Below are positions 14,919 to 59,882 of a stretch of DNA of 60,124 nucleotides, piece after piece. Under the pieces are notes generated by a model. The model ran no database searches and had not been told where the DNA came from. It worked only from the letters and a program-made list of their open reading frames with translations. Numbering within the stretch: position 1 is the stretch's first letter; every line of letters starts with the position of its first letter. Made by a program: the position numbers and the translations under genes. This stretch comes from Patescibacteria group bacterium (GTDB taxonomy: Bacteria; Patescibacteriota; Microgenomatia; Curtissbacterales; GWA2-41-24): the NCBI GenBank assembly GCA_038063735.1, contig JBBTUN010000010.1, positions 1-60,124 of the forward strand, written 5' to 3'.

Positions 14919-14921
14919 TTG

Positions 14922-15320: not shown

Positions 15321-15325
15321 AAATC

Positions 15326-20070: not shown

Positions 20071-20102
20071 GTTTACATGGTTCATAGTTCGTGGTTCATA
20101 GA
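20071..20102 (+). repeat. heptamer array (GTTTACA TGGTTCA TAGTTCG TGGTTCA TAG)
   Basis: It starts at the base after the stop codon of the 19660 gene. Confidence 0.85.
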
Positions 20103-21079: not shown

Positions 21080-21159
21080 TGGTTCATGGTTCGTGGTTCG
21101 TAGTTCGTAGTTCATGGTTCATGGTTGGTGGTAGCTATGCTCTACGAACTATGAACTAT
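21073..21159. repeat. inverted heptamer arrays between convergent genes (terminator-like hairpin)
   Basis: 21073-21133 reads tagttgatggttcatggttcgtggttcgtagttcgtagttcatggttcatggttggtggtag. 21141-21159 reads tctacgaactatgaactat, in the complementary sense. The arrays overlap both stop codons. Confidence 0.8.
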
Positions 21160-22679: not shown

Positions 22680-22757
22680 GATACAAGAAAGATGCAAGAA
22701 TTTTAAATTTTAAATTTTAAATTTATAATTTCGAATAATTAAAACAAACATAATAAA

Positions 22758-25595: not shown

Positions 25596-26477
25596 ATGCC
25601 TGTCCAATCTGCGGTTAGTGATAAGAGTGGGGTTGTTGATTCTGATCCAAATGGTTTGTTGGGTGGTTTGTCGCCCAACGCCGTTCCTTCTTTTCCCGCT
25701 GGTGGCGCCAGGGCGCAGCCTGCACCCGCCGGAGGTTCTGGTAGTTCCCCAAAGAAGGGTTTATTCCATAATGCAAAGTGGTTTGTGTTATTGGCACTTC
25801 TCGTATTGATAGTTGCTTTCATCGCTTTCTTTTTGAACCCCGCTAAGCCTTTGGGGAAAGTGCCCACCTCAACGCCAAACAATTTGGAGGAATTTGTGGC
25901 TCCAATTAATGTTTCGGATGTGTTGTTTCCAAGCGATTTCCAACGGGACATATTCTTAAAAAACTTCCAGGATGCTGCCAAAACCGGTGATAGTTTAACC
26001 AGATATAAGCTGCTTGATGATAATTACACCAGGCTTTTGGGGTTTTACACTCAAGATCATGACCCAAAAACCCGCGAGGTGCTAACACAATATTCTACCT
26101 ATATGAAGAGTAACTATGCTGACCAAGCCCAAAAGAACAGTTATGCTGTGCCTTGCTACGATTTGGGTTGCGGAAAGGCCAATTACCTCGACGAGGCAAA
26201 AAGCATAAAAGAAACAATCGATGCCAGTACTGTCCTGGAAAAGGATCTCAAAGATAATTTAGACAAAAATTTTGAGGCTGCAGCATTTTCTGCTTCTAAA
26301 GAAGCGCAATTTTCGTATTACGAACAGGTTTTCCAGTCGCTTAAGGGCAGCTATGAAAAGACCAAAGACAACAATTTAAAAGAGATAGCAATTAAATTGC
26401 GGGATTTTATAAAGGCAAGTTATGCTGATTTGTACGAGGTGAATTTGAAAATTAAGCCGGACTTATTTGATATATGA
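25596..26477 (+). CDS. bitopic membrane protein with a helical ectodomain (partner A of giant protein A)
   Basis: 293 aa with a TM helix (WFVLLALLVLIVAFIAFFL). It is a paralog of 30046..30861, sharing 'RYKLL[DE][DE]N[YF]..L.GFYT' and the Cys pair C-x-D-x-x-C-G. Its stop overlaps the next ATG (ATGA). Confidence 0.6.
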   Translation: MPVQSAVSDKSGVVDSDPNGLLGGLSPNAVPSFPAGGARAQPAPAGGSGSSPKKGLFHNAKWFVLLALLVLIVAFIAFFLNPAKPLGKVPTSTPNNLEEFVAPINVSDVLFPSDFQRDIFLKNFQDAAKTGDSLTRYKLLDDNYTRLLGFYTQDHDPKTREVLTQYSTYMKSNYADQAQKNSYAVPCYDLGCGKANYLDEAKSIKETIDASTVLEKDLKDNLDKNFEAAAFSASKEAQFSYYEQVFQSLKGSYEKTKDNNLKEIAIKLRDFIKASYADLYEVNLKIKPDLFDI

Positions 26478-29400: not shown

Positions 29401-29911
29401 TAAAGGTGGAGCTACTTCAACGTGTTCGTTTACGCTATCTACTGCAATAAATTATTGCAGTGGGAATTTGACATTTAACACCTCCGATAGCGCGCCGATT
29501 GGGGATCATGTGTATTTTGTGGAGGGTAACTTGAGAATAAAGAAAAATTTTGAGCTAAATGCAGCAAGCACAATGGTCTTTTTGGTCAATGGCAATGTAA
29601 CTGTCGATCTGCGTGAGAACGGAACAGGACCTTTTGTTAATAGGGTTGACGGCATTTATATTGTCAAAGGGGTATTTTACGATAGCGATGTGGCCGATGC
29701 CGGAATTGCCACGCCTGCTGACGCCTTAACTTTAAACGGTGCACTTTACGCTGAAAATCTCGCGGGCGGGCTTAACTTAAAGCGTTATTTTACAGGACCA
29801 TATAATGCTACTAACGCCCCAAATAGGTTTGTATGGGATCCAAAATATATTATCAAGCTAACCGACTTGATTGGAATAAAATCGATACAGTGGAGGGAAG
29901 TAGCGCCCTAA
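26474..29911 (+). CDS. giant secreted multidomain protein A (Fn3-like modules plus a C-terminal beta-helix-like module)
   Basis: 1145 aa with signal peptide MRKLFLFSVVFIAAFLFFVSAGARKANA. Motifs include 'QDVHCTTPN', 'YYWR[IV]', 'STNEDGFWLDV', a Pro-rich hinge and 'GFFETQGGDVG'. The protein ends 'WREVAP'. Confidence 0.65.
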   Translation: MRKLFLFSVVFIAAFLFFVSAGARKANALELGSSAIVSGWLDNTTGTIPITVTVSFYSGAAGSPFLLPAPNPQVYVVPVGQRVSASYADFTDRGWYQISWGTSCTDPPVQTSNAVVPGAYIFASQDVHCTTPNATPSISNTACANFGWTLAGVGSNGANISSFEIFMSQTQSDLTSNGGDPAIGPYVSKTSTARSHDFGALSPGTYYVRVRAVSPQGIGSWSSVNQFTCAPAGLAPVAASGLNASRSCNGSGAITANIVNVAFTWTRSTPTPSDEQWIDYSVFNNNFGGGYANAGVNGASSYNGTGFAQNIRYYWRINNRYGTNWYPSATGSFVTPTCPPGSVGGPTPPPVSPPPLPPGDISITGVADCSLGGTKLNWSISYLPVPSGWQQIETGISYAPLAIGSQGFVQPSFWVGASPHFYTNVQVQNETITIPFGVTNPLPNASRSGAGYAPYTSTNNFGQTYTYYAWAFYSVENPPGSGSWQTGQTVSAGSITITNPASCAPAITYSITASGTTDCIDGTNAKVHLTWTSDTDNTTYTIYKDGVAQSPTVVGVGRSWDSGPEPSGQTPSWVVRGTGGVAGTVNSNAASVTTAACEPPPANPAQLSISISCNGSNPEVFFRFTDWSTNEDGFWLDVNTQPWTGPTAPSPWGVKTITSTLAQKVAVGLPKRTFTWNNAVSTNTAGPLDLGGDVDGVTPGAQLTPAKSTKYYWRVKAFNASRQSEHVYPASGTIAPGAYFETLSCTPNYDLSARIVPNSWNKQIFDVGETATLKVEITNLQTSTAASAPSKLYFFPDGVGLPVCKNLVDGTLDPTSSPATGVPKDATGIANQSYDVLPIPVADPLVPGSGTRTIDVEFIVSNTPTSLTGYAYVVPSCSFLPDIGIDPNFFNNQSFGFTYIVGSDGFFETQGGDVGAVGNVSVAVKSSGLGLYQSDYVIAADDIEDEVVSKKGWMLENYNKKFVPTGGLYELFDKKFKGGATSTCSFTLSTAINYCSGNLTFNTSDSAPIGDHVYFVEGNLRIKKNFELNAASTMVFLVNGNVTVDLRENGTGPFVNRVDGIYIVKGVFYDSDVADAGIATPADALTLNGALYAENLAGGLNLKRYFTGPYNATNAPNRFVWDPKYIIKLTDLIGIKSIQWREVAP

Positions 29912-29925: not shown

Positions 29926-30039
29926 TAGTAGATAGTTGACAGTAGACGGTTGACAGAAGGAAAAAACTGTTAACCATGAACCGTGAACCGTGAACCGTGA
30001 ACCGTGAACTATTAATTATTAACTATTAACTATTAACTA
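29926..30039. repeat. archetypal composite heptamer hairpin element
   Basis: The structure is (AGTAGAT AGTTGAC AGTAGAC GGTTGAC), then aaggaaaaaactgttaac, then (CATGAAC CGTGAAC x4), then (TATTAAT TATTAAC x3). It is preceded by the hairpin aaaggcc-gaa-ggccttt (29909-29927). Confidence 0.9.
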
Positions 30040-30045
30040 AATAAC

Positions 30046-30866: not shown

Positions 30867-33800
30867 ATGAGAAAGTTTGTTTTTGGAGTTGCGCTATTTC
30901 TAGGGCTGTTTTTTTTAAAATCGGTAAGCGCAGATGCAGCTTTGGCTGCGACCATTAGTGGAATACTGGACAACAGGCAGGGAAGCATTCCGGTAACGGT
31001 AAGTCTTTATGTTACCAACGAAAGCGGTGGCTCTGCAGGAAGTTTCTCTCAAACAGTCGCGCAGGGCACGAGTTCAACTTTTTTTCAAACTATCACATCC
31101 GGGGATTTTCCATCCGTTACCTGGTTTACGTCTTGCAACTCGGGAGCTACTACCACTTCCGGGTCTGCCGGAGCATATACTTTCACCCCTCAGGACGTTC
31201 ACTGCACAACGCCCAATTCCACCGTTTCTTTAACTTCTACAAGTTGTGCCGGCACAACAGGTAATGTTGGGTGGAAGGTTAATTTATATCCTGCGCCCAA
31301 CAATACCCCAAACATTGCCAACTTTAAGATTTTTAAGGCAGTTGCGCCCGCCTCGGCGGATACGGATACTTCGCCGATAACGGTTCCGTTGGGTACCAGT
31401 CCGTATAGTCAAAATTTAACCGGACTTTCTACCGGAGCTTATAATGTTAAAGTAGTTGCATATGCAAATAGCCCGGATGGTGGCAGCAGCGTAAGCGCTA
31501 CAGGCCAATTTACTTGCAATACAACAGTAGTAACAGTGCCGACTAACCTGGTTTCGACTGTTACCTGTTCCGGGAGCAATGTGCGAGTAGACTTTACATG
31601 GGCTGCGGCGGCGGGTACTACAATTGTCGGGTATTATGTCGAAACGAGTACGGCAATTACTGATCCCGGGCCTGGCGGTAGCTGGAATGGTCCGGGGGTT
31701 ACGCCCAGCCCTCCAACCAATACTTATGCAAAGATAGAAAGTGGTCTTTCCGGTGCCACAACTTACTGGTGGCATGTTAAGGCAACGCCCCAAACAGGCT
31801 CACTCTTGTATTCTAGTTCTTTGCAGTTTACAACAAACCCGCTAAGCAGCTGCTATCAAGCTGCGAATGCAAGGGAGACAAAAACGTGTTATGGCGGGAA
31901 TACAGGGGATATAAATTTCATTTGGGACACGGCAACACCGACGTTTGCAATTACTTCGCAATACATACAGTTTTCGACAGATCCGAATTTTGTAGCTAGT
32001 TCCGATTGGAGTGTGACGGTGGATGCGGCAAGTTATACGTTCTACAGTTTTAACACATATTTCCTCCCTGCTACCCGTTACTGGCGGATAAAAACACAGA
32101 TGGGTGGCCAGTGGTATTATTCGAATGCCAGGTTATTTTGGACGCCTAGTCAATGTAACACCGGGGTTTCTATGACAGCTGGGGGCGTTAGTTATTGCGC
32201 AGGGGATACACCATCATTCCGTTTTCAGCTGCTACCTTCCGGACAGCAACCTTTGGCGTACTATGTGGGTACGGGGCCGAATGGTTTAAACGTTACGTTC
32301 GTCGCTGCCTTTGACAACTATAGTTTGGACTTAGACAATGGACCATCCGGACATTACTGGCTTAGACATTGGAATTTTGCTGCTGCTTACTATGATTTGG
32401 GCAATTTAGCGCCGGCAAGCTGTTCGGCAGCGGTTAATACACCTGCAGCGCCTACAAGTTTGGGTTACCCCGCATTAAATACAACCTGCGATGTTAATAA
32501 AAAACCTCACGTTGGTTTTACTTTTAAGGATAATTCTACCAATGAAAATGAATTTTGGCTGGAAGTTTCTTCGCAGCCGTTTACCGGACCATCGACGACC
32601 AATCCGGATAACGTGTGGGCAAAGAAGGTAATTACCAGGACTGATGGTACAACAACGGGGGATACAATTACATTCGACTGGTATGACGCGACTACAACCA
32701 ACACGGCCGGGAGGATGGAATTTCCCAATGCTAATCCGCAGGCACCGCCGGCGAGTGAGCTTGTGCCCCTGGATTATGTCAGCTACTACTGGAGGGTTAG
32801 GGCGTATAACAGTGGATCAGCTATTTCCAGCGCAATTATGTACCCCAATGGTTCTGCTTTGAGTACGAGTGTTCCCACCGGCCTTTCATTTATGATTACG
32901 CCCCCCTGCCAGCTTCGCCATGATTTGAAAACAGAAATTGTTTCCGGGTCCTGGAGAAATAGCAGCGGGGTGCAAACACAATCGTTTGTGGCCAGCGAAA
33001 ATGTAAGTGTGGATGTTTTGGTTACTAATGTAGTAGGGGCGAATGTAACGACTTCGCCTGCACTCACTCCTCTTTATTTCTACTATAAGGGTGGTGCAAG
33101 CATGCCTGACTGTACAGTAGGTACCTCAGGAGGTACGGCACCGCCAGACGGAGCAATCCCTGCAGTTCCCCAGCTTTACACCATCAATGCCCTAGCACCC
33201 GGGGATACACAGACCATAACGGTGCTATTTAACGTGGGTAGCAGTGTTAGCGCATTTACTGCGTATGCATACGCAGCGCCAACATGTACTTTTACCGATT
33301 TGGGTACCGACCCCTCTTGGGGAAACAACAAATCCAATGGTTTTTCGTATACTGTCGGAGTTAACGGGTTTTTTGAGACATTTCGCGGTGATGTGGGGTC
33401 TGGAGGGAAAATAAGTGTGGGGGTTAATTCTTCTGCTTTTGCTACCCCGATATACCAATCGGAATATGCAATTGGCGCTGTTGACATTAATAATACGAAT
33501 TCGAATGTACAATCTAAAAACAATCTTGAGCTTGACGGATATTCAAAGAATTTAGTTCCGTCCGGTGGCGTTTACAAGTACTTTGCAGACAGGTTTTTGG
33601 CGAAAGCAAAGGCAAATGATCCTCTAGGCCAAACGTGTACTCTTACACATGGTGCCACCTATAATCTGGGGAACAAATTTTATTACTGTGCAGGAACCGC
33701 AAATATTGATGCGCTAAGTCTTGTGTCTGGCAACCCTGTATTTTTTATCGATGGTGACCTGAACATAAATAATAATGCTGGCTGGAACACCCCTTCGAAC

Positions 33801-34133
33801 GTAAATTCTGTTGTGTTTATTGTCAAGGGAAACATAAATGTGGCAACTTCGGTGCAAACTATTCGCGCTGTTTTAATTGCAGGCGGATCGTTTACAGACG
33901 GAACTAATGGTGGAGAAATATCGACGGGTATGGGTACTTCCGGCAAGCTTTTGATATGGGGTGCTCTTTATGTTGATGGGCAAATGAATTTGGTAAGGCA
34001 TTGGGGTGGAGGAGACATTGGTTTGAATGCAACTACACCTTCACTACAGGCTGCCAGCTATTTTGCCAACATTCCTTTACTTAACTCGATTCTTTCAACA
34101 TCTCCGGTTGGTTGGAAGGAAGTGGCGCCGTAA
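30867..34133 (+). CDS. giant secreted multidomain protein B (paralog of A)
   Basis: 1088 aa with signal peptide MRKFVFGVALFLGLFFLKSVSADA. The motifs 'QDVHCTTPN', 'YYWRVRA', 'STNENEFWLEV' and 'GFFETFRGDVG' occur in the same order as in A. The protein ends 'WKEVAP'. Confidence 0.65.
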   Translation: MRKFVFGVALFLGLFFLKSVSADAALAATISGILDNRQGSIPVTVSLYVTNESGGSAGSFSQTVAQGTSSTFFQTITSGDFPSVTWFTSCNSGATTTSGSAGAYTFTPQDVHCTTPNSTVSLTSTSCAGTTGNVGWKVNLYPAPNNTPNIANFKIFKAVAPASADTDTSPITVPLGTSPYSQNLTGLSTGAYNVKVVAYANSPDGGSSVSATGQFTCNTTVVTVPTNLVSTVTCSGSNVRVDFTWAAAAGTTIVGYYVETSTAITDPGPGGSWNGPGVTPSPPTNTYAKIESGLSGATTYWWHVKATPQTGSLLYSSSLQFTTNPLSSCYQAANARETKTCYGGNTGDINFIWDTATPTFAITSQYIQFSTDPNFVASSDWSVTVDAASYTFYSFNTYFLPATRYWRIKTQMGGQWYYSNARLFWTPSQCNTGVSMTAGGVSYCAGDTPSFRFQLLPSGQQPLAYYVGTGPNGLNVTFVAAFDNYSLDLDNGPSGHYWLRHWNFAAAYYDLGNLAPASCSAAVNTPAAPTSLGYPALNTTCDVNKKPHVGFTFKDNSTNENEFWLEVSSQPFTGPSTTNPDNVWAKKVITRTDGTTTGDTITFDWYDATTTNTAGRMEFPNANPQAPPASELVPLDYVSYYWRVRAYNSGSAISSAIMYPNGSALSTSVPTGLSFMITPPCQLRHDLKTEIVSGSWRNSSGVQTQSFVASENVSVDVLVTNVVGANVTTSPALTPLYFYYKGGASMPDCTVGTSGGTAPPDGAIPAVPQLYTINALAPGDTQTITVLFNVGSSVSAFTAYAYAAPTCTFTDLGTDPSWGNNKSNGFSYTVGVNGFFETFRGDVGSGGKISVGVNSSAFATPIYQSEYAIGAVDINNTNSNVQSKNNLELDGYSKNLVPSGGVYKYFADRFLAKAKANDPLGQTCTLTHGATYNLGNKFYYCAGTANIDALSLVSGNPVFFIDGDLNINNNAGWNTPSNVNSVVFIVKGNINVATSVQTIRAVLIAGGSFTDGTNGGEISTGMGTSGKLLIWGALYVDGQMNLVRHWGGGDIGLNATTPSLQAASYFANIPLLNSILSTSPVGWKEVAP

Positions 34134-34152: not shown

Positions 34153-34280
34153 GTGGACAGTAGACAGTTCACAGTAGACGGTTAACAGTTAATTGTTCAC
34201 GGTTCACGGTGAGAAAGTTGACAGAAAGCGGTTCACGGTTCACAGAAAAGAGTTAACGGTCAACCGTTTACGGTTTACAG
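34153..34280 (+). repeat. long degenerate heptamer array, GTTCAC sense
   Basis: ggacagtagacagttcacagtagacggttaacagttaattgttcacggttcacggtgagaaagttgacagaaagcggttcacggttcacag... It is preceded by the hairpin aaaactgc-gga-gcagtttt (34133-34151). Confidence 0.9.
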
Positions 34281-34281
34281 A

Positions 34282-34632
34282 TTAGGGTTTAACAGAATTT
34301 TTCAAAGCGTTTATTCTTTTTGCCAAATTATCTACTCGTGGGTAAATTTCTTCGAATTCATTAGGTGTAATGTATTTAAGCTCTAAACAGATCTTTAAAA
34401 GTGGTACTAATTCATAACACGAGCCACGAGATATGTCTAAAAAATGACGAAAATCCTTTTTACTTCTTGAAGAACCTTCTGCAATGTTTAAAGAGATGGA
34501 AACAACAGCTCTTCTAATCTGGCTGGTAAGACCGAAAAGCTCTTCTCTGGGAAACTTTTTGCTAAATTTGTAAATATCTAAAGCTAGTTTTAAGGAGTCT
34601 TGGTAAACATTTAAATTTTCAAAACTCAGCAT
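34282..34632 (-). CDS. four-helix-bundle protein (23S rRNA intervening-sequence protein / Avd-like family)
   Basis: 'FENLNVYQDSLKLALDIYKFSKKFPREELFGLTSQIRRAVVSISLNIAEGSSRSKKDFRHFLDISRGSCYEL' is the family signature. Confidence 0.8.
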   Translation of the reverse strand: MLSFENLNVYQDSLKLALDIYKFSKKFPREELFGLTSQIRRAVVSISLNIAEGSSRSKKDFRHFLDISRGSCYELVPLLKICLELKYITPNEFEEIYPRVDNLAKRINALKNSVKP

Positions 34633-34643: not shown

Positions 34644-34762
34644 TACTATGAACAGTGAACCATTTACTGCCTACCGTGAACTGTCCGCTGTGAACTTCTG
34701 ACCTATTTTATCTTACTACGAACTATCAACTATGAACCATGAACTGTTAACTGTGAACTTTG
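34644..34762 (+). repeat. long degenerate heptamer array, GTGAAC sense (inverted relative to 34153-34280)
   Basis: ctactatgaacagtgaaccatttactgcctaccgtgaactgtccgctgtgaacttctgacc...ctacgaactatcaactatgaaccatgaactgttaactgtgaac. Confidence 0.9.
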
Positions 34763-34806
34763 ATCCACTTAATACCCGTTTAGGTTAACAAATTTTAAAG
34801 CGCTAC

Positions 34807-35865
34807 TTGATGAAATTTGCGCCAGATGTTAAAAATGCTGCGATGTTTTCTTTGCCCGTTTTTTCTTCAAAGAGGCTTGGAATTGATCTTGGAACATCTA
34901 ATTGCCTGGTTTGGTCCTCCGGTGAAGGTGTGGTTATTTCCGAGCCTAGCGTCGTTGCTATTGACTCCGGCTCGGGCAAAGTGGTTGCTGTTGGTACACA
35001 GGCCCACGAGATGCTGGGGAAGACCGGCAGTGATTTAGTTGCGCAAAAGCCTCTGCGCGACGGAGTAGTGGCCGACTATTTAGTTTGCGAGGCCATGCTT
35101 AAGTATTTTTTGGATCGAGTTTTGAAATCTTCGCGGTTTTTGAAGCCCGAAGTAATGGTTTGCGTGCCTTACGGGATAACTCAGGTAGAAAGAAGGGCAG
35201 TTTTGGAAGCTACGCTCTCTGCGGGCGCCAAAACCGCCTATTTAATAGAGGCGCCGCTTGCGGCCGCAATAGGTGCCAAGCTGCCCATAGACGCGCCTTA
35301 CGGGTCCATGATCGTAGATATAGGTGGAGGCCAGGTGGGAGCAGCGGTTGTTTCCTTGGGAGGAATAGTTGCGGCAGGCAGTGCGCGTGCCGGCGGAGAC
35401 AAATTGAATGAAGCGATAATCACTTACGTTAAGAGAATTCACAATTTGGTAATAGGAGACCGTATGGCCGAGGAAATAAAAACTACAATAGGTTCGGCCA
35501 TTCCTATCAACCCCAAAAAAACCATGGATATAAAGGGGAGAGATTCTATTTCCGGCATGCCTAAAACAACGGTTGTGGATTCCTTAGAGGTAAATGAAGC
35601 GATTAGTCCTATTCTCGGGGCGATTATTGCCACTATAAAGCAGGTTTTGGAGCAAACACCACCTGAGTTGTCATCGGATATTATTGACCGCGGAATCGTG
35701 CTTTGCGGGGGCTCCAGTTATTTAAAGGGTTTGGATAGATATGTGAGTTCCCAGATTGGGGTTAGCGCACACGTTGCCGAGGATGCGATGCAGTGTGTAG
35801 TTTATGGAACCGGCATTGCGCTTGAAAATGTTGATAATTGGCGAAGAATAGTGCAGAAGAGGTAG
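34807..35865 (+). CDS. mreB: rod-shape/actin-like protein MreB
   Basis: 'GIDLGTSNCLVW', 'VVAIDSGSGKVVAVGTQAHEMLGKT', 'PLRDGVVADY', 'MIVDIGGG', 'GIVLCGGSS'. The first codon is TTG, so the true start may be the internal Met (MFSLPVF). Confidence 0.85.
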   Translation: MMKFAPDVKNAAMFSLPVFSSKRLGIDLGTSNCLVWSSGEGVVISEPSVVAIDSGSGKVVAVGTQAHEMLGKTGSDLVAQKPLRDGVVADYLVCEAMLKYFLDRVLKSSRFLKPEVMVCVPYGITQVERRAVLEATLSAGAKTAYLIEAPLAAAIGAKLPIDAPYGSMIVDIGGGQVGAAVVSLGGIVAAGSARAGGDKLNEAIITYVKRIHNLVIGDRMAEEIKTTIGSAIPINPKKTMDIKGRDSISGMPKTTVVDSLEVNEAISPILGAIIATIKQVLEQTPPELSSDIIDRGIVLCGGSSYLKGLDRYVSSQIGVSAHVAEDAMQCVVYGTGIALENVDNWRRIVQKR

Positions 35866-35867
35866 GC

Positions 35868-35935
35868 GGTTCATGGTTCATGGTATTTTGAAAATAGTCT
35901 TTTCTATTAACTATTGACCACTAACTATGAACTAT
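35868..35935. repeat. inverted heptamer pair directly after the mreB stop (terminator-like)
   Basis: ggttcatggttcatggt (35868-35884) is followed by ctattaactattgaccactaactatgaactat (35904-35935). Confidence 0.75.
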
Positions 35936-37510: not shown

Positions 37511-37826
37511 AAAGTAAAATTTTTGACAAATTTTTCAAAATTTAAAAATAAGGGCTCCTAGTATATTGTTATTAACGCTTTTTTAAAGCTTATAGATAAT
37601 TTTAAATTTTAAATTTTTAATTTTAAATTTTTAACGATCTGGCTTTAAAAATGATGCATTTGGCTAGGTTAAATAACTTACTCAAAATTGTATTTTTTGC
37701 TAAAAAGTTTCTCTAAAAAATATTGACTGATAGTAAAATTAGTGTATTTTTGTCGTTGATGGTTTTTGACCTTTGATGCTAGACTGAAGTTGTGGCTTAG
37801 GGCCCAGCTTTAACTGCCATATTCTT

Positions 37827-40702: not shown

Positions 40703-40915
40703 TTATTGATTTAGGGAAGTGTCGCCGGACTTTACCGCTCCCAATAGCCATAAAACAGCTTCTTTCTTATATCTGCGATCCCCGCGGGAGTTTATACGGA
40801 TTGCGGGAAGTTTACCCCGCTTGCCCCATCTTTTTACTGTGAGGGGAGCAACGCGAAGAATCTTTGCTACTTCTTTTACTGTTAACAAATCCGGCCAGTC
40901 GTCTCCTAGTGACAT
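40703..40915 (-). CDS. excisionase/MerR-type helix-turn-helix DNA-binding protein
   Basis: 'LLTVKEVAKILRVAPLTVKRWGKRGKLPAIRINSRGDRRY'. Confidence 0.65.
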   Translation of the reverse strand: MSLGDDWPDLLTVKEVAKILRVAPLTVKRWGKRGKLPAIRINSRGDRRYKKEAVLWLLGAVKSGDTSLNQ

Positions 40916-40917: not shown

Positions 40918-40955
40918 TAAATGGTTGATGGTTGATAGTTTATGGTTCATAGTTA
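40918..40955 (+). repeat. heptamer array abutting the HTH gene start codon
   Basis: taaATGGTTG ATGGTTG ATAGTTT ATGGTTC ATAGTTA. Confidence 0.85.
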
Positions 40956-42595: not shown

Positions 42596-42630
42596 AGTTT
42601 ATAGTTTATAGTTAACGGTTCATGGTTCAT
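42596..42630. repeat. heptamer array filling the rplJ-rplL spacer
   Basis: agtttat agtttat agttaac ggttcat ggttcat. The last unit contains the rplJ stop codon. Confidence 0.9.
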
Positions 42631-53239: not shown

Positions 53240-54697
53240 TTATTGCGGGGATTTGATGCAGTAGTTAAAGGCGCTGTTGTTGGGGATGCCGAGATCCAAA
53301 TATGGCGATGCAGGGTTTGTTACCGGGTCGAAATCGTTCGCTATACATTTTGCGTTGGCATTTCCGTATAATTCAGGGTCGTTGGCGTTTTCGAGTTTTG
53401 TCCACAGAACAAATACTTTTTGGTTTGTAGAAGTCCTGTAACAATAGACATTTGTTGCAAAGTTGTCGCAAGCACCTGTCGTTATTGGTGGATATGTGCA
53501 AGGTAGTGGATCTCCGGTGTTTGTTGCTAGCGGGTCAGTGCATGTGCTTGGCGGCGTGATGACGTCTGCGTATGTAATATCTAATTTTGGAGCATTGCCG
53601 TAAATGGGTCTTGCCGGGTCGCCTGGGTCTGTAACAGAACCGTCGTAAGAAACTCCTATTCTACCAGCACAAGACCCAAGGGGTGTTCCGTTATCAAGCC
53701 AGAATAAAAGTACGTCTCTTGGTGTCGGGCCTGCCCAGCCAGAGAGGCTATTGAGATCACTGATTGAAGACGTAATGTCGAAGGAAACTGTGCCGGGTGG
53801 GTTCCAGACAACGATATCCGGGGGAATTGTCTCGGTTGTATGAGCTTTGTTCATTTCGGTTGCCCACCCGGATCCGTCTGCGGGCGAGGCCGGTGTTAAC
53901 GTTTTTTCTGCACGGAATTTTGTTTTTACAGGTGTGTTTGCGTCGTAAAATGAATCTGGTTGGGGCATACTGTAAGGCGGGACTGCGTTTCTCATTGAAA
54001 AAGTTATTGTAGCTGAGGAGATAGTTTTTCCGGCAGGAATATTGACATTTCTGAACATCATGAAGCTATTTCTTGTGTTAAGGCAATTCGTTTCAAATGG
54101 TTTTCCGACAGGTACATCGCTGACTGCGGTGTCAAAAAATCCGGTGCTGGGTCCGGAACTGATGTATTTTCCGTCGTCTGCTGAGGCTGTTACCGAATAA
54201 GAGACATTATTTGTTGCAGCGACCTGACCATTTGCAGCTGTTTGTTGATTGTACGGATAGTTCATGATTGTTTTTACAATGTTTGCGAGTTGGGAAATTA
54301 CGCTGGTTTGCAAAGGGTCCTTTGGTAATTTATCAAGATAGCCGGCGAGGTTTGGAATCCACGACTCACTATAAGGATATGAAACATAATCCAGTGATGG
54401 GTTGGCGACTAAATCTGTAGGTGGATAGTGGTGATTGTCGGTAAAATATGCTGTTAGGGCACTAGCGACTGCCGAGAGGTCACCCTTTCTCCTGGCGTCC
54501 TTACCTTTTTCGCGTGCGTTGTTGGTGGAATATAAAATTGCGCTTGCAAGAACTGCCATTATTCCAACAACGACCAGGATTTCGATGAGAGTGAAAGCGG
54601 GCTTGGTTCGTGGTTCGTGGTTGGTGGTTCGTGGTCTGTTAAATTTTTTTCTGAGACTGTGAACTATGAACCATAAACTACTAACTATCTTGGGCAT
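53240..54697 (-). CDS. large type IV pilin-like protein (485 aa)
   Basis: 'AFTLIEILVVVGIMAVLASAILYSTNNAREKGKDARRKGDL'. The large C-terminal domain ends 'NYCIKSPQ'. The leader is encoded by heptamer arrays. Confidence 0.75.
   Translation of the reverse strand: MPKIVSSLWFIVHSLRKKFNRPRTTNHEPRTKPAFTLIEILVVVGIMAVLASAILYSTNNAREKGKDARRKGDLSAVASALTAYFTDNHHYPPTDLVANPSLDYVSYPYSESWIPNLAGYLDKLPKDPLQTSVISQLANIVKTIMNYPYNQQTAANGQVAATNNVSYSVTASADDGKYISSGPSTGFFDTAVSDVPVGKPFETNCLNTRNSFMMFRNVNIPAGKTISSATITFSMRNAVPPYSMPQPDSFYDANTPVKTKFRAEKTLTPASPADGSGWATEMNKAHTTETIPPDIVVWNPPGTVSFDITSSISDLNSLSGWAGPTPRDVLLFWLDNGTPLGSCAGRIGVSYDGSVTDPGDPARPIYGNAPKLDITYADVITPPSTCTDPLATNTGDPLPCTYPPITTGACDNFATNVYCYRTSTNQKVFVLWTKLENANDPELYGNANAKCIANDFDPVTNPASPYLDLGIPNNSAFNYCIKSPQ
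54604..54690. repeat. bipartite heptamer arrays inside the pilin leader
   Basis: tggttcgtggttcgtggttggtggttcgtgg (54604-54634), then the A/T-rich spacer, then ctgtgaactatgaaccataaactactaactatc (54657-54690). Confidence 0.9.
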
Positions 54698-54738
54698 TAG
54701 TTTAAGGTTAACGCTTTTTGATGATTAGATCAAGAAAA

Positions 54739-56742
54739 CTATCTGGGGGAACGGATACAATAGTTGAGATAATGTGAGCTGCCGCCAGGTGGTGGTACGA
54801 TTGTTGAGTCATTGTCGTTACAGACGGCGCTGTCTTTAGGGCTATTATAAATATCCGGATCGCCAGTGTTTTCTAGTTGTATCCAAAGAACAAAATTTTT
54901 TCGGTTTGACGAGACTCGATAGCAGATTATGAAACTTTTATCGTTGCAAGCGGTACCTGTGCCTGAACCCCCGGGAAGATCCGGCGGAATTATGGGTGGT
55001 TCGGGATTGACTATTACAGAGCATGTCGCGTTTTGAGCACCACTTGTTACAGTCACGGTGAATGGGGAGCCTACGGAAGTGTTATATGATGTGGAAAACG
55101 GAGTGCCGCTTCCGGTGGTGTTGGATGAATTAGGTGCGGACCATGAATAGGTTCCGGTTCCTCCGGACGCTGCAAAGGAAGCGTTTGCGTTTGGTAACGT
55201 GAATGTTTGTGAGGCCGGACTGCAGACAAGTGGCGTTGCGGAGACATTTACCGACAAAGTATCTGAACCGGTTCCCCCGGGGCCGGTGCAAGTTAGATCG
55301 TACACCGTAGTGGCTGTTAGGTTTGTTGTATCGAATCCGGGAGGGTCTGCCATAGAAATTGCGCTGCTTGTAGTAGGACCGCCTGTCAGGGAACACGATG
55401 CGTCTGTGGAGTTTGCAACTGACCAGCTAAGGCGTGCGTTTGTGCCGCTGGTGATGTTGATAGAATTTCCTTGTGGTGTGCCGCCACTTTCGGGTCTGCC
55501 TTTTAGGTCTGGAATTGGTGCTGGTGTTGACCAGTTAATGGTTATGATGGGGGCTGTTCCAAGGCCGACTGCCGCACCGTCGTTGGCAACCGGCACCCTG
55601 CCGCCGCAATTAGGGTAAGCGCCTGGATTAGTTGTTCCGTCGTCTTCCCAATATATGTTTATATGCAGTGAAGAGTTGGTCCATCCCGATTGGTTTACTA
55701 AATCCTGGATTATTGTTTTGAGATCGGGGCTTTTGAGGTCGTTGGGGTTTACCGGAGTTGGATACCAGACAGGTATAGGTGTTGAGGAGTTTGCCCCCCA
55801 TTTGATTACACCTGCATCAGCTGTTTTTGGACGGCTTCCCCAATCGTTACCATCTACTATTTGCTGCGCATTTGTACTTAATTCAGCTCGAAACCTGCTT
55901 TTTATAAAACCTGGGGCTACGGCGTTAGAAGAATTGTCACCCACTCCACTATCGTTTCTTGGAGTAAAGGCAATTGTGGCACTATCGACAGTGCTGTCTT
56001 TTGGGATAGGGCCATTTAGGGTAAATCGCATGTAGGAATCTCGAGTTTGGGCACATTCAAATGGATGCCCCATCGGATTGTCGGTAACTGTGTTTTGAAA
56101 CTCATTGTTCTCCCTTATTCGTTTTGCATCGTCTTCGGAGGCTACGATAGTACCTGTTACTGACCCGGCAGCGGCGACACGGCCAGTAACATTTTTAGAT
56201 TGAGCAAGGTTATTAGCTGTTGTATTAAGTGAATTGAAAGGTTTTTTAATGATCATGGCAACCTGTTGAATTAAACTTGCTGTGGGGTCTTTGGGAATTT
56301 TTTGTAGATAAGGTGCTAGATCCGGGATCCAGTTTTCGTTGTAAGGATAGGATGAATAATCCAAGTTGAGGTTGGTTGTGTCAGTGGGTGGGTAGTGTCC
56401 GAAGTCGGCATAATAGGCAACCAGAGCGGTGGCGATTGCTTGCAAATCACCTTTTCTCCTGGCGTCCTTACCTTTTTCGCGCGCGTTGTTGGTGGAGTAT
56501 AAAATTGCGCTTGCAAGAACTGCCATTATTCCAACAACGACCAGGATTTCGATGAGAGTGAAACCACGTTTGGTTCGTGGTCGGTGGTTCGTCCTTCCTT
56601 TGTCAGGATAAATGGTTGGTAGTATATTAGATTTTTTTCTGAACCTATTAACTATGAACCCTTCATGAATCAGGGTAAACCATGAACTATTAACTATTTT
56701 ATGCACTATCTTCAGGTTAATTGGTTTTGGGGTCAAAATCAA
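54739..56742 (-). CDS. very large type IV pilin-like protein (667 aa)
   Basis: 'GFTLIEILVVVGIMAVLASAILYSTNNAREKGKDARRKGDL' is nearly identical to the 53240 paralog at the DNA level. The C-terminus is 'NYCIRSPR'. The TTG start is uncertain. Confidence 0.7.
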   Translation of the reverse strand: MILTPKPINLKIVHKIVNSSWFTLIHEGFIVNRFRKKSNILPTIYPDKGRTNHRPRTKRGFTLIEILVVVGIMAVLASAILYSTNNAREKGKDARRKGDLQAIATALVAYYADFGHYPPTDTTNLNLDYSSYPYNENWIPDLAPYLQKIPKDPTASLIQQVAMIIKKPFNSLNTTANNLAQSKNVTGRVAAAGSVTGTIVASEDDAKRIRENNEFQNTVTDNPMGHPFECAQTRDSYMRFTLNGPIPKDSTVDSATIAFTPRNDSGVGDNSSNAVAPGFIKSRFRAELSTNAQQIVDGNDWGSRPKTADAGVIKWGANSSTPIPVWYPTPVNPNDLKSPDLKTIIQDLVNQSGWTNSSLHINIYWEDDGTTNPGAYPNCGGRVPVANDGAAVGLGTAPIITINWSTPAPIPDLKGRPESGGTPQGNSINITSGTNARLSWSVANSTDASCSLTGGPTTSSAISMADPPGFDTTNLTATTVYDLTCTGPGGTGSDTLSVNVSATPLVCSPASQTFTLPNANASFAASGGTGTYSWSAPNSSNTTGSGTPFSTSYNTSVGSPFTVTVTSGAQNATCSVIVNPEPPIIPPDLPGGSGTGTACNDKSFIICYRVSSNRKNFVLWIQLENTGDPDIYNSPKDSAVCNDNDSTIVPPPGGSSHYLNYCIRSPR
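56570..56697. repeat. bipartite heptamer arrays plus a degenerate second 'FTLI' codon string in the pilin leader
   Basis: ttggttcgtggtcggtggttcgt (56570-56592). 56641-56697 reads gaacctattaactatgaacccttcatgaatcagggtaaaccatgaactattaactat. Confidence 0.85.
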
Positions 56743-56752
56743 GGCTGCGGAG

Positions 56753-56852
56753 AAATTTTTAATTTTTAATTTAAAATTTTTATTAAAATCATAATTTTAA
56801 AAAATTTAAACAATTAAAATTGATTTAAAATTTAGAACTTAAAATTTAAAAT
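56753..56852. repeat. AT-only heptamer-like array (ATTTTAA/AATTTAA family)
   Basis: aaatttttaatttttaatttaaaatttttattaaaatcataattttaaaaaatttaaacaattaaaattgatttaaaatttagaacttaaaatttaaaatt. Confidence 0.8.
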
Positions 56853-56857
56853 TGGGC

Positions 56858-57046: not shown

Positions 57047-57106
57047 GTTGATTAGTTAGATAGTTTGGTAGTTCGATAGATCGATAGTTGGTTAGTTCGT
57101 TAGAAC
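57047..57106. repeat. degenerate heptamer array (TAGTTNG family)
   Basis: gttgattagttagatagtttggtagttcgatagatcgatagttggttagttcgttagaac, lying between the four-helix-bundle gene and rpmG. Confidence 0.75.
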
Positions 57107-57126: not shown

Positions 57127-57498
57127 CTAATCTTGGAGTGATTGTTCAAGCCTGTAAAGCATTTTGGATATTTCTGTTGCAAGATTGTATGCATGATTAA
57201 ATTCTGAATTATCAATGTAAGTTAGTTGTTCAACAATGTGGAGACAAGTTAGAGACTCTCTTAAAGAACCTAGGGAATCATGAAGAAATTTTCTAAAATC
57301 TTTTTTTGTTCTTCGACCTGATCCCTCTGCAATATTTAAGGCGATTGATACGGCTGATCTTCTGATTTGGGATTGAAGGCCGAATATTTCACTTTTGGGA
57401 AACTTCGTGCTTATTTTGTAAATATAAAGTGAGTATTCTACCGCTTTTTGCCAGACTAGGAGCTTTTCGAATCTAAAACTTGCTATCTGCCTATCCAT
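57127..57498 (-). CDS. four-helix-bundle protein (23S rRNA IVS protein / Avd-like family), second copy
   Basis: 'FEKLLVWQKAVEYSLYIYKISTKFPKSEIFGLQSQIRRSAVSIALNIAEGSGRRTKKDFRKFLHDSLGSLRE'. Confidence 0.8.
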   Translation of the reverse strand: MDRQIASFRFEKLLVWQKAVEYSLYIYKISTKFPKSEIFGLQSQIRRSAVSIALNIAEGSGRRTKKDFRKFLHDSLGSLRESLTCLHIVEQLTYIDNSEFNHAYNLATEISKMLYRLEQSLQD

Positions 57499-57514: not shown

Positions 57515-58771
57515 CTAATTACTATATTTGTATGTCCCTTTTATTATTTGCCAGGACCCTCCGGGGCCTGTAGTAAATTGGGCTGATGCAAGACCTGAAT
57601 CGTAAGTGAGGCTTGCGCTGTTTTTGATAAGCATCGATTTGGAGACCAGCGCTGTTACCTGGGCCGAGTTTGAAAGCTCTGAACCGCCGTCGAGGGCGTA
57701 GAATATGGCATTGACACCGCTATTTTGGATTTTTACAGCATCGCTTGCCGTTGATGTGGTTGCCACAAGTATGTAACCCTTAGGACTAGAGCTAGTAGGT
57801 GTAAAACCGCCGCTATTTGCTGTGACGATTTTCCCTCCAACTATGAGCACAGAGCCGCTGGATCCAAATGAGTTGTTAAGTTTTAGGGAGGCAGAGTTTT
57901 GGATGGTAACATCGCCTGTTACATATATGGGGCCGTTCATTATGGCGGTTGCAGTGTTGGAGAGTGTCAGGTTGCCAATATACTTTTGCGGCCCAAGGTT
58001 TGGTGAGCCGCTCGATATGGAGCACGTACCGGTGCAGTTAGTAATCCCTCCTGCTGTTGCAGCATCTTGCCAATATTGGTAATCAAGTGTTGGCATTTGA
58101 GATGCTGTTTGGTTTTGGTGTTTTGTGCCTGTGACGGTGGGATCGGGAGTTGTGATTGTCCCGACCGCGTAGGCATTCCCGACAATCCTGGATGACCCGG
58201 TACCGCTTATGCTGCCAGCCCCGGTTTTGTTTGAATAGACCGTGCCGGTGATAGTTGCTGAATTTTCCATATCGACACCACCGGTGCCCACTTGAACCGC
58301 GTAATTAAATTCTATGATAGTGTTGTCTATGCCTACATCAAGTTTAATTACCCTTTTGTTTTTCGGTGAGGTAGCGTTTGGGACGTAACCCGTTGCTGTT
58401 ACAGTTTTAAGGTTTGATGATTTGTTTGCGACGGTTACTGTGAACGTGCCGGTTGTGCCAAGCGCTGTGTTTGTTTCTCCCGAATAAGCGCCGGCAGTTT
58501 GGTTGAGCTGCCAAAGAGCTCTTTCTATGCCAGCCTCCGAAAGGCTATTTGCTTCTTCTCCCGTAACAGACCCGGAACCAAATCTTAGTAAATCTGCAGT
58601 TCTTCCAAACAGGCTTGCAGTTAGTATTAGAACTACGGCTATAAAAATTAGGCCAAAGACGAGAATTTGGCCGGGATAGTTGGTGGTTGATAGTTGATGG
58701 TTGATAGTCTTTACGGCTTTGCACGTTTTCTTTCCATGAACTACTAACCACGAACTATTAACTAATTTCAT
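57515..58771 (-). CDS. pilus-associated protein with an N-terminal TM helix and a beta-helix-like body (PilX-like position)
   Basis: 'GQILVFGLIFIAVVLILTASLFG', then Gly/Thr/Asn/Ser-rich repeats such as 'GPIYVTGDVTIQNSASLKLNN..GSVLIVGGKIVTAN'. Overlaps the upstream gene by 4 nt. Confidence 0.55.
   Translation of the reverse strand: MKLVNSSWLVVHGKKTCKAVKTINHQLSTTNYPGQILVFGLIFIAVVLILTASLFGRTADLLRFGSGSVTGEEANSLSEAGIERALWQLNQTAGAYSGETNTALGTTGTFTVTVANKSSNLKTVTATGYVPNATSPKNKRVIKLDVGIDNTIIEFNYAVQVGTGGVDMENSATITGTVYSNKTGAGSISGTGSSRIVGNAYAVGTITTPDPTVTGTKHQNQTASQMPTLDYQYWQDAATAGGITNCTGTCSISSGSPNLGPQKYIGNLTLSNTATAIMNGPIYVTGDVTIQNSASLKLNNSFGSSGSVLIVGGKIVTANSGGFTPTSSSPKGYILVATTSTASDAVKIQNSGVNAIFYALDGGSELSNSAQVTALVSKSMLIKNSASLTYDSGLASAQFTTGPGGSWQIIKGTYKYSN
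58676..58768. repeat. bipartite heptamer arrays in the 5' end of the 57515 gene
   Basis: atagttggtggttgatagttgatggttgatagtc (58676-58709) and ccatgaactactaaccacgaactattaactaatt (58735-58768). Confidence 0.9.
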
Positions 58772-59349
58772 TTGTTTCTTAAAAGAGCTGTTGCTTCTCT
58801 TTCTATGTCTTGGGTTTTGCTGCCAGTTGTTGCTGAAAGCTTAATTTTGGCTGTGACTTCTGTAGCCTGGGCCGGGGTAGCATTGTTGTATGTAAAGGTA
58901 AGGTCGGATACCCTGGTTGCTACTATTTTGTTTAAACTAGATCTTGTGCTTGTGGCTGTGGGATAAACAATTTTTTTCAGTATCGTATTGTCGGTTGCGT
59001 CTCTTTTGTACTGGATATAGTCAAAGTTGGTGCCGCCATCAAAGGGTTCGTTTGTGGCATTAAGCGGCCAGATTTGCAGAATGATTAGATTTGCTCCTGT
59101 CGTATCCGGTCCGCAAGGTGTACAACTGGCTACAATCGATTGGCTCTCCCGAATTTGATTGATCATTTCGTCCAGAACAACTTTATTGTCTTCTGTAATT
59201 GTTATAAGTGCGCTTTGATCCTGGAAAAATTTGAAATGATTGATAAAGATATAGCCTAAAGTGAGCATGACAAATCCTAAGAGAGCTGCCGCTATTAACA
59301 GCTCTACAAGGGTTAAGCCTTTAATGCGTTTTGGAGTGTTAAATACCAT
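58768..59349 (-). CDS. minor pilin-like protein (prepilin-type N-terminus)
   Basis: 'KGLTLVELLIAAALLGFVMLTLGYIF'. Confidence 0.65.
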   Translation of the reverse strand: MVFNTPKRIKGLTLVELLIAAALLGFVMLTLGYIFINHFKFFQDQSALITITEDNKVVLDEMINQIRESQSIVASCTPCGPDTTGANLIILQIWPLNATNEPFDGGTNFDYIQYKRDATDNTILKKIVYPTATSTRSSLNKIVATRVSDLTFTYNNATPAQATEVTAKIKLSATTGSKTQDIEREATALLRNK

Positions 59350-59800
59350 TTTCGTAAATTAGCGTGTCCATGTGTACTTGCCTTGTTGTACTATTTACCA
59401 CCCAGGTAACGTTGATTGAGACCTGTTTGATTTGCGTTGAGCTTTGATAGTTACTAACGGTGAGCGTTGCAGCGCCTTGCGGTAACTTAGACAAGTTAGG
59501 ATCTGCAAATGGGCCGGAGGCAGGTAGTGAGGCAAAGGCAGTGTTTCTTAAATCCTCGACCTTTTTGGATGCAATTTTTGATGCAGTAGATTGCAGGTTT
59601 GATTGGCGGGTTAGGGTTAAGGTGCCTGACGCCGTTAAGAGAATTGCGGTAAGAATAATTAAGATAAATACGCTGAGGAGAACCTCGATGAGGGAGAAAC
59701 CAAAGCGTCTTTGGCGCTTGTTAACAGTTAACGGTTCACGGTTCACGGTTTTTTCTTTACTGTGAACTGTCAACTTCAAACTGTCGACTGACTTGGGCAT
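59339..59800 (-). CDS. minor pilin-like protein (prepilin-type N-terminus)
   Basis: 'FGFSLIEVLLSVFILIILTAILL'. The leader contains heptamer arrays. An in-frame GTG inside the array would give a conventional 15-aa leader. Confidence 0.65.
   Translation of the reverse strand: MPKSVDSLKLTVHSKEKTVNREPLTVNKRQRRFGFSLIEVLLSVFILIILTAILLTASGTLTLTRQSNLQSTASKIASKKVEDLRNTAFASLPASGPFADPNLSKLPQGAATLTVSNYQSSTQIKQVSINVTWVVNSTTRQVHMDTLIYENGI
59720..59790. repeat. inverted heptamer arrays in the minor-pilin leader
   Basis: gttaacagttaacggttcacggttcacggt (59720-59749), then ttttttctttac, then ctgtgaactgtcaacttcaaactgtcgac (59760-59790). Confidence 0.9.
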
Positions 59801-59882
59801 TAAGTTTATTTTAGCAAGAATTTAGTTAAGGCGCTTTCGCAAGTGGTAATAGGTGCTCGTATTTTGTAAAATGGGCAAAGTT

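Follow-up and report, generated by a model that had tools for sequence, protein, structure and literature searches.

The window analysed here, by which we mean the whole 60 kb stretch of contig JBBTUN010000010.1 from a Patescibacteria group bacterium, carries a type IV pilus cluster on the minus strand at 53-60 kb, and most of the pilin genes in the window begin with in-frame arrays of tandem 7-nt units (heptamers). Read along the minus strand, the cluster comprises pilinD (59339-59800), a pseudopilin with an ordinary leader (58768-59349), a PilX-like protein that we call E (57515-58771), a 23S_rRNA_IVP protein with rpmG, and the two large pilins pilinB (54739-56742) and pilinA (53240-54697); pilinC (15326-15967, minus strand) lies outside it. 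Five open reading frames (ORFs) of the window match PF07963 (IPR012902), the class III motif, namely pilinA, B, C, D and 58768-59349, in agreement with a motif scan. Four of the five carry a two-armed heptamer array, as does the PilX-like E. An earlier note on this DNA had given such arrays to all pilin-type genes, which proved too broad, since 58768-59349 is array-free and starts with the ordinary leader MVFNTPKRIKG|LTLVELL. The bipartite arrays that it had described in frame in five minus-strand genes, ahead of G/A|F(T/S)LIE or a transmembrane helix, were confirmed, and the peptides and DNA strings it quoted were found where it had placed them. No Peptidase_A24 gene was seen among the scanned window ORFs. 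The pilinA protein is identical on three Hainich groundwater contigs, the longest of which (103.6 kb) belongs to ENA ERZ1292619 (well H41, 0.1-um fraction), and the orthologues of E are labelled Candidatus Curtissbacteria or Gottesmanbacteria by their sources, which places the organism among the Microgenomates of the candidate phyla radiation. Related loci and proteins are designated L### and P####, respectively, and all of the analysis is comparative.

The element consists of four RGTTNAY units (arm 1), an A-rich spacer and about four complementary RYNAACY units (arm 2), and measures ~85-100 nt. Its spacer AGAAAAA, which encodes R/K-K-K, is present in pilinA-D and E, and the A-rich loop always lies on the sense strand. 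In pilinA, the 34-codon leader (MPKIVSSLWFIVHSLRKKFNRPRTTNHEPRTKPA|FTLIE, 54596-54697) contains arm 1 at 54658-54685, the A-rich loop at 54635-54655 and arm 2 at ~54599-54632; the array is open in the gene frame alone, and the PF07963 N_methyl match covers residues 34-55. The pilinB leader (56563-56706) has 48 codons counted from GTG 56706, with arm 1 broken by a GGTTTACCCTGATT insert (56668-56681) and a degenerate arm 2 that contains an extra segment. The insert is the second FTLI-like string that had been noticed in this leader, and its match is exact. The pilinC leader (MSLPEIVHSSQFIVHRFRKRAINHQPLTINRNSTG|FTLIE, 15842-15946) has 35 codons from ATG 15946, with arm 1 at 15901-15928, the loop at 15884-15898 and arm 2 at 15856-15883, and the 34-codon pilinD leader (MPKSVDSLKLTVHSKEKTVNREPLTVNKRQRRFG|FSLIE, 59699-59800) has arm 1 at 59761-59788 and the loop at 59747-59760. 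In E, the N-terminal tail (58673-58771) holds an array of ~31 codons between MK and GQILV, the latter belonging to the transmembrane helix, with arm 1 at 58735-58762, the loop at 58709-58735 and arm 2 at 58678-58705. All five of these arrays are on the minus strand. The likely starts (for example GTG 56706 in pilinB and ATG 15946 in pilinC) give pilin leaders of 33-48 amino acids, shorter than the 35-60 first estimated, and these leaders include moderately hydrophobic IVHSSWFIV-type segments.

Two further genes are associated with a single arm. A four-unit array (5534-5561, plus strand) lies at the 5' end of the sortase ORF 5478-6113, 13 nt past the stop codon of 4615-5517, and an in-frame TTG inside it (5550-5552) provides an alternative start, so that this array, correctly reported as present at the ORF's 5' end, is one-armed and may be intergenic rather than coding. 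The other is in frame in a low-complexity linker (..KKTVNREPSTVNL..) of a PEGA-domain protein (21156-22394), at 21518-21545 on the minus strand. The claim that the only available start lies upstream of the array thus stands for pilinA, pilinB, E and pilinC (where the sole alternative is an ATT) and fails for the sortase and for pilinD, in which an in-frame GTG (59744-59746) directly follows the loop as part of the first arm-2 unit.

The earlier note had missed that these arrays belong to a genome-wide, mostly intergenic family that is not specific to pilins. Chains of at least three in-phase units occur 21 times in the 60 kb, compared with a mean of 0.015 in 200 shuffles. Among 18 array loci, 11 are intergenic, five are inside the ORF at the extreme 5' ends of genes for membrane-anchored proteins, one is in the linker and one is ambiguous, and the intergenic arrays range from 3 to 9 units. 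The intergenic copies commonly start 0-25 nt past a stop codon (mreB, rplJ, both sortases, 19660-20070, 26474-29911 and 30867-34133), and some lie directly upstream of starts (rplL, 30046 and 40915). The density of period-7 arrays per 10 kb is 1.66 in the window, 0.19 in 17 other loci of the candidate phyla radiation (CPR) and 0.08 in non-CPR loci; these background loci came from a pilin-alignment scan of genome contigs, which returned distant generic pilins only, the best CPR match being a Collierbacteria.

The in-gene arrays are very probably translated, as judged from their reading frames. In the seven long intergenic arrays, stops close every one of the six frames (0/42 frames open), whereas the five in-gene arrays have a single open frame apiece, which is always that of the gene (5/5 versus 0/67, Fisher p=7e-8). 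These counts were made in the window only and are free of selection bias from ORF calling. When the four arm-1 sequences of the window were aligned with five taken from other contigs, the junction between units 2 and 3 was compared across all nine; this junction, which is the in-frame one, reads TGG, TTG, CAG or AAG and never TAG (0/9). Units 1 and 3 end with TA in 15/18 cases, compared with 0/9 for TA|G at unit 2 (p=5e-5), and the avoidance of TAG, TGA and TAA shows a three-unit periodicity. Likewise, the in-frame unit of arm 2 is ATCAACC, ATTTACC, ACGAACC or ACCAACC at places where ATTAACC or RTGAACC would create a stop, with ATCAACC used in pilinC and ACGAACC/ACCAACC in pilinA, and TCT replaces a would-be in-frame TGA in the PEGA linker array. 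The replacement of in-frame stops by variant units is as the earlier note had described, and its caution was also sound: the likeness of the encoded peptides alone proves no translation. Its proposal of long translated class III leaders is supported by the single open frame, the stop avoidance, the promoter-ATG spacing and the starts of orthologues.

The regions upstream of the pilin starts provide a second line of evidence. By aligning them, we found TAAYCT -10 elements within a module TTGAY(C/T)-N17-TAAYCT-N6-7-ATG/GTG that is kept in pilinA, pilinB, L002, L005 (12240) and L208. On the minus strand of the window, the pilinA module (54705-54733) consists of TTGATC (54728-54733), 17 nt, TAACCT (54705-54710), 7 nt and the ATG, and pilinB has TTGATT at 56737-56742 and TAACCT at 56714-56719. 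Other -10-like hexamers are found 6-7 nt before the ATG of pilinC, pilinD, L211 and L005; in pilinC the order is TTGACT (15975-15980), 16 nt, TATCAT (15953-15958), 6 nt and ATG, while pilinD has an extended -10, TGcTAAAAT (59808-59816). The start context TAATGCCCAAG(A/T) common to pilinA and pilinD was confirmed, and the ATG of E overlaps the preceding stop codon (ATGA). A scan of 53-60 kb for consensus promoters and terminators gave no overall excess, its strict hexamer rule having missed the TAAYCT elements. The pilin starts have no Shine-Dalgarno sequence; rplL in the same window has a strong one (GGGAGGTG), so the absence is specific to these genes. Because a -10 hexamer stands 6-7 nt before the start and a Shine-Dalgarno is missing, the upstream alignments suggest that the pilin mRNAs are leaderless, with the start fixed upstream of the array. 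The best sigma-70-like match of the region, TTGTCA-17-TATATT (10/12), is antisense within the pilinB leader (56600-56628, plus strand) and is probably due to chance.

In each of the nine aligned genes, arm 1 starts in codon phase 0 and is made up of exactly four units, the number also found in an insert in a ribosomal L4 gene (below). Conservation within arm 1 is 1.0/1.0/0.97 at the GTT positions of the unit and 0.69/0.78/0.83/0.81 at the others, compared with 0.84/0.90/0.86 by codon position, and the in-frame Val codons are GTT in 17/18 cases against 42% GTT among the Val codons of the window (p=4e-6). Constraint or homogenisation therefore acts on the nucleotides and not on the peptide, of which IVSSLWFIVHSLR is an example encoded by arm 1. 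The 14-mer GGTTTACCCTGATT occurs in three exact copies in the window, on the minus strand: as the true G-F-T-L-I codons of pilinC (15830-15843), in arm 1 of the pilinB leader (56668-56681) and in an intergenic array (14533-14546). As its GGTTTAC fits the heptamer consensus, the shared string suggests that the arrays may have recombined with the N-terminal coding sequence of a pilin.

A profile built from the five leaders of the window, run against 1.84 billion representative proteins, recovered ~16 distinct pilin clusters with MPK(L/I)V(H/N)SS.F.V(H/N)..KK..N(H/R)(Q/E)P.T.N..G|FTLIE. It also picked up the two-armed element, again in frame, in two proteins of other samples, a ribosomal protein L4 (P0058/L209) and a QueE-like protein (P0066); all in-frame host copies use the same frame of the element. 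For E, 120 orthologues were listed and 112 of them could be anchored as M..tail..GQ(I/V)L. The anchored proteins all begin with M(K/R) and keep GQ(I/V)L, and the tails in between measure 2-70 amino acids: 36 have tails of at most 10 amino acids, 9 have both arms, 13 have one arm or a decayed array, and 54 have other sequence, which has a repeat-derived look in many. The two closest relatives among the 120 listed (80-81% identity) are array-free, and insert-free forms are also found in L005 (MKNKNGQ) and L212. Judging from these alignments, repeats seem to have a general hotspot for in-frame insertion in the short cytoplasmic tail of the PilX-like protein throughout Microgenomates. Other repeat-like tails seen in E orthologues (P0099-P0195) are MKVKCQLLSVKCQN, ..FGHWKLKS and MKINQKQETGNQKQKLFSLKFNVSSFQFAS (four clusters).

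Presence and absence of the element are also seen in the pilins. The closest relative, L212, has a pilus cluster without any arrays, and its pilinD relative (MPARNSKLSQG|FSLLE) has the same TAATGCCC context as pilinD; the relatives of pilinD all begin with MP and have leaders of 11 amino acids (L212) or 34-50 amino acids. L005, a syntenic cluster from another species, has a pilinA orthologue with the same promoter and array leader in which a GC-rich palindrome is nested in frame, and two other leaders that are built on different heptamers with the same plan of start-arm-RKK-arm-G|F; its E gene is array-free. This palindrome, CCTGCCTGCCGGCAAGGCAGG, is in frame in two L005 pilin leaders (10040-10070 and 12275-12300), and L003 has another, CGCTTCGCGCGCGAAGCG; these nested palindromes are second-order insertions into the array leader. 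In L004, arm 1 is in the 5' untranslated region (5'UTR), a true Shine-Dalgarno and the ATG are in the loop, and arm 2 is in a 13-amino-acid leader. In L208, an ATGAACC unit provides the start of the second pilin, whose 13-amino-acid leader is built of arm-2 units. A tandem array of CCCTAGT/CCCTAAT heptamers, resembling a telomere repeat, was also observed upstream of an L004 pilin (L004:90-150), and other CPR loci carry AAATCCG, TAAAGCC and TAAACGC units.

We think it rather probable that the element behaves in the manner of the palindromic elements of Rickettsia (RPEs; Ogata et al. 2000, summarised in PMC10969869), being translated as an unusually long class III leader that is tolerated and does not act as a switch. 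Selection would remove the stop from whichever unit falls in the single open frame of the element. In the four pilins, initiation would take place at the ATG/GTG 6-7 nt past the -10 hexamer on a leaderless mRNA, the element would form a cytoplasmic class III leader of 33-48 amino acids, and the prepilin peptidase would cut this leader off and leave the mature pilin unaffected; in E, the element would merely extend the cytoplasmic tail ahead of the transmembrane helix. The element would persist because leaders, tails and the linker tolerate almost any sequence, and any effects on expression, through a modest 5' stem-loop or protein-binding heptads, would be secondary. According to PMC10969869, RPEs are likewise multi-copy palindromes of ~100 bp that are intergenic and also in frame within unrelated coding genes, with one conserved open frame per family, insertion at tolerated protein sites and insert-free orthologues. 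Here we found inter- and intragenic copies, a shared element peptide in unrelated genes and insert-free orthologues; signs of mobility, also an RPE-type trait, were not found. The arms here differ from those of RPEs, which are unique sequence, in being built of tandem 7-nt units; the element also resides in a CPR/Microgenomates bacterium, within coding sequence it favours a cleaved class III leader or a cytoplasmic N-terminal tail, and there is no evidence of transposition.

Several points weigh against this RPE-like interpretation. The support for translation, cleavage and transcription start is wholly comparative, and the database homologues were retrieved as called ORFs, which in part accounts for their open frames. 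PilinD, L210 and L005:12240 have an in-frame GTG/ATG at the beginning of arm 2, which would give ordinary short leaders. No transposase was noted, no target-site duplication was found at the E insertion site, and there are no near-identical copies, those in the window being ~60-70% alike by eye; 'mobile element' is therefore an analogy only, a likeness in behaviour. In addition, the 7-nt-spaced GTT/AAC cores are invariant across diverged genes and the promoter-leader module recurs on many pilins, an order that exceeds the simple decay of selfish DNA and could reflect a function.

Such a function might be that of a cis-regulatory module, either a 5' stem-loop or heptad sites for a DNA- or RNA-binding protein, which we regard as doubtful though deserving of attention. 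It would account for GTT/AAC cores that stay invariant at an exact 7-nt spacing while other positions drift, for the fixed 4+4 architecture, for a promoter-ATG-array module kept across species and non-orthologous pilins, for the sense-strand A-rich loop in every case, for L004, where the same plan has the Shine-Dalgarno and ATG in the inter-arm loop, and for L005, where other heptamer types keep start-arm-RKK-arm-G|F. A leaderless mRNA offers no 5'UTR, so a regulatory element would have to lie inside the ORF, where a cleaved leader can host it. There are precedents in heptad arrays bound by a ribbon-helix-helix protein (PMC9499535) and in TAACTGA heptamers just upstream of starts, proposed to be regulator sites (PMC4679880). 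However, the sense-strand leaders fold weakly (-12 to -30 kcal/mol, z -0.35 to -3.6), and RNAalifold on 10 leaders gave a consensus of -2.6 kcal/mol with a covariation term of +0.7 and no covariation support, double changes being found at three pairs only, in one sequence each. Outside the invariant GUU:AAC triplets, the stem pairs are frequently A.C mismatches, and the AUG is 9-18 nt 5' of the stem, outside the helix. The hairpin control of translation offered by the earlier note is accordingly weak, its folds being modest, and what stands of it is a possible cis-regulatory role in the wider sense. An operator role is also implausible for the copies in the ribosomal L4 loop, in the PEGA linker and 3' of many genes, the cluster of the closest relative L212 is array-free, and no candidate binding protein was found. 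A related proposal, which we consider unlikely, is that promoter, ATG and array form a conserved regulatory cassette of leaderless Microgenomates pilin mRNAs that sets pilin expression: the GUU/AAC heptads would be bound by a DNA- or RNA-binding protein, or a stem-loop would choose between the 5'-terminal AUG and an internal start, the encoded peptide would be tolerated only because the prepilin peptidase discards it, and the intergenic copies would be part of the same recognition network.

If arm 1 were instead an untranslated 5'UTR, translation would start after the loop and produce ordinary leaders of 10-17 amino acids, the upstream extension being fortuitous. The start would be the GTG in pilinD and a near-cognate codon of the first arm-2 unit elsewhere (ACG in pilinB, ATT in pilinC and ATC in E). 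The in-frame GTG/ATG of pilinD, L210 and L005:12240, the ATGAACC start of the second L208 pilin and the L004 start in the loop behind a real Shine-Dalgarno are in line with this, but pilinA has neither a canonical nor a near-cognate in-frame start past the loop, the stop-free gene frame of arm 1 and its avoidance of in-frame TAG would be needless, the loops have no Shine-Dalgarno although rplL has a strong one, and the MPK/MK start is conserved together with the -10 hexamer 6-7 nt upstream; we therefore find this quite improbable. The contingency locus suggested by the earlier note, in which one 7-nt unit more or less changes the reading frame and thereby turns the pilin on or off, as simple-sequence repeats do in Haemophilus and Neisseria, now appears very improbable. 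A 7-nt unit is no multiple of three, the remaining frames all have stops, so that a one-unit change would abolish expression, and the intergenic arrays do vary from 3 to 9 units; the in-gene arrays, however, are heterogeneous and interrupted, with at most ~2 identical units in a row, arm 1 keeps to four units throughout (9/9 genes, which come from several species, and the L4 insert), and the proteins P0001 and P0084 are identical on three contigs. The comparison of orthologue unit numbers that the earlier note had proposed showed differences by the presence or absence of whole elements or by in-frame nested inserts, and not by single units. It is hardly more credible that the leader peptide itself is functional, for example as a pro-peptide for the pilus machinery, with the DNA repeat as a by-product. 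The ~16 pilin clusters that share MPKLV(H/N)SS.F.V(H/N)... would fit this, but conservation follows unit position and not codon position, third codon positions are not relaxed, GTT is used for 17/18 Val codons, the same sequence is found in non-coding arrays, and orthologues manage without a leader array.

Class III leaders are usually short (about 5-30 amino acids) and hydrophilic or neutral. Their length is variable, however, and can be 'very long' (PMC10191384), and the array leaders resemble the long ones of type IVb pilins and of the Streptococcus sanguinis type IVa pilins (PMC10191384) in the terminal Gly/Ala, the F-T/S-L-I-E and the hydrophobic helix. Unlike known class III leaders, they are at or beyond the long end (33-48 amino acids), contain an IVHSSWFIV stretch and are encoded by repeat DNA conserved at the nucleotide level. 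Tandem 7-nt units that are abundant, mostly intergenic and lineage-specific in sequence are known as heptanucleotide simple sequence repeats, such as the TAACTGA repeats of Beggiatoaceae and cyanobacteria (PMC4679880); as here, they are often upstream of starts or overlapping stops, and are occasionally translated at protein ends. They are nearly always direct (169 direct sets versus one inverted in BOGUAY; PMC4679880), whereas the complementary arrays of the window form a fixed 4+4 palindrome of a different unit with an A-rich spacer. The heptad operators or parS sites of the pSM19035 omega protein (PMC9499535) are also contiguous 7-bp units in direct and inverted orientation, and the TATCACT reading of the ACTTATC arrays (14548-14591 and 15279-15317) agrees with WATCACW; the main RGTTNAY family is different, many of its copies have no promoter, and no ribbon-helix-helix partner was found.

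Other heptanucleotide repeats have reportedly been described, as long simple sequence repeats (LSSRs) by Mrazek in 2007 and as the cyanobacterial STRR. Haemophilus influenzae HMW repeats are long, perfect non-coding tracts in the promoter-start interval, and their number varies between isolates. The present arrays share with them a 7-nt unit at the 5' end of a surface-protein gene and differ in having heterogeneous, apparently translated units that are fixed at four per arm. The REP/BIME, Correia and MITE-like palindromes may serve as mRNA 3' stabilisers or terminators. They are, like the intergenic copies here, dense hairpin-forming repeats commonly just 3' of genes; in contrast to such palindromes, the arms in the window consist of tandem heptamers and no associated RAYT or transposase was seen, and frequent in-frame coding copies are atypical of REPs. 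Our scan for intrinsic terminators found 7 against 7.8 expected, none of them at arrays, and Rfam matched tRNAs only over the whole window, with no match at arrays.

A palindrome made of two fixed-size complementary heptamer arrays, its occurrence in the CPR and its systematic residence in class III leaders appear to be new; our literature searches found no description of heptamer palindromes occupying class III leaders. If the RPE-like interpretation is correct, Rickettsia-type selfish palindromes inside genes would extend to the candidate phyla radiation, and a signal peptide that is removed anyway would be a new hiding place for selfish DNA. Array insertion would explain the range of 2-70 amino acids in the N-terminal tail of PilX-like proteins across Curtissbacteria-like genomes, and the pilins would be a concrete example of leaderless mRNAs with repeat DNA as their first 100 nt. 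Callers of start codons and signal peptides will mishandle such pilins: an L212 pilin was truncated, and the pilinB ORF was begun at the TTG of its own -35 box. A phase-variation reading for CPR pili, though attractive, is not supported.

Among the intergenic arrays of the window, two-armed ones with stops in all frames lie at 21072-21159 (six frames), between the convergent sortase (20402-21079) and PEGA genes, and at 29927-30044, where an arm is followed by a AGAAGGAAAAAA loop, at least five AACCGTG units and then AACTATT units, and 2 nt separate the array end from the ATG of 30046. Another two-armed array (35868-35933) starts 3 nt past the mreB stop codon. Shorter arrays are found at 20076-20099, 6 nt past the stop codon of 19660-20070, and at 40920-40954, 5 nt upstream of the start of an HTH/MerR-like gene (40703-40915). 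The window also contains two paralogous 23S_rRNA_IVP or bAvd-like four-helix-bundle genes. One (34282-34632) is flanked on both sides by large array blocks, at 34156-34296, downstream of 30867-34133 and of the IVP gene, and at 34650-34763, between the IVP gene and mreB (34807-35865); the other (57127-57498), the IVP gene of the pilin cluster, has a 24-nt tandem repeat after it (57053-57104).

Further period-7 families of the window are built of ACTTATC and AATTTTA units. Composite arrays in which RTGAACY units are followed by ACTTATC/ACTTTTC units are present on either side of a hicAB toxin-antitoxin pair (14700-15206), in direct orientation: one (14489-14591, RTGAACY and ACTTWTC units) is downstream of hicA and contains GGTTTACCCTGATT, and the other (15249-15321, RTGAACY and ACTTATC units) is between the pilinC 3' end and hicB. 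In another register the ACTTATC-type units near hicAB are TATCACT, which matches the heptads of the omega protein mentioned above, and these flanking arrays could be a cassette boundary or an operator. AT-rich arrays of AATTTTA/AAATTTT units form a third heptamer family (7145-7176, 14069-14159, 19145-19175, 22695-22736, 37595-37635 and 56752-56853); they precede several genes, among them pilinB at a distance of ~100 nt, and may act as promoter-upstream elements.

The GTTCAYR unit family is more widespread. A scan of metagenome contigs for (GTTCAYR)3 gave >120 contigs with GC contents of 0.31-0.69, with no pilin context and no orthologues, which shows that the family is not lineage-specific. 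Inverted (GTTCAYR)n...(RTGAACY)n arrays around centres of 30-100 nt were observed in unrelated contigs (L094, L126, L142, L155 and L204, GC 0.40-0.64), some of the centres being GC-rich terminator-like hairpins; unit family and layout are therefore not confined to CPR. A DNA uptake sequence was considered on account of a weak ComP_DUS match of pilinC and rejected, as the motif is not enriched outside arrays (observed/expected 8/20 for GTTCAT, 6/12.5 for GTTCAC, 19/16 for ATGAAC and 15/14 for GTGAAC).

In 14/14 pilin leaders the better fold is that of the antisense strand, and an antisense RNA was likewise considered and rejected: in every leader contig the sense strand is rich in C (GC skew -0.12 to -0.21), and symmetrical folding is seen for the L4 insert, whose sense strand is G-rich. 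We attribute the asymmetry to compositional skew together with T-to-C stop avoidance (TGA removal) in arm 2. The plus strand of the window is G- and T-rich throughout (GC skew +0.004 to +0.20), independent of gene orientation, and for UBA1400 Microgenomates a similar disparity between the strands has been reported over the whole chromosome (PMC7143001). The plus strand also gives the more stable hairpin in most arrays, since its G.U pairs correspond to A.C mismatches in the complement. Finally, the array at 42596-42630 lies between the rplJ stop codon and the strong rplL Shine-Dalgarno, giving an order of heptamer array, Shine-Dalgarno and an N-terminally extended ORF, as rplL (L7/L12, 41982-42572) has a ~70-amino-acid acidic/lysine-rich extension preceding its L12_N domain.

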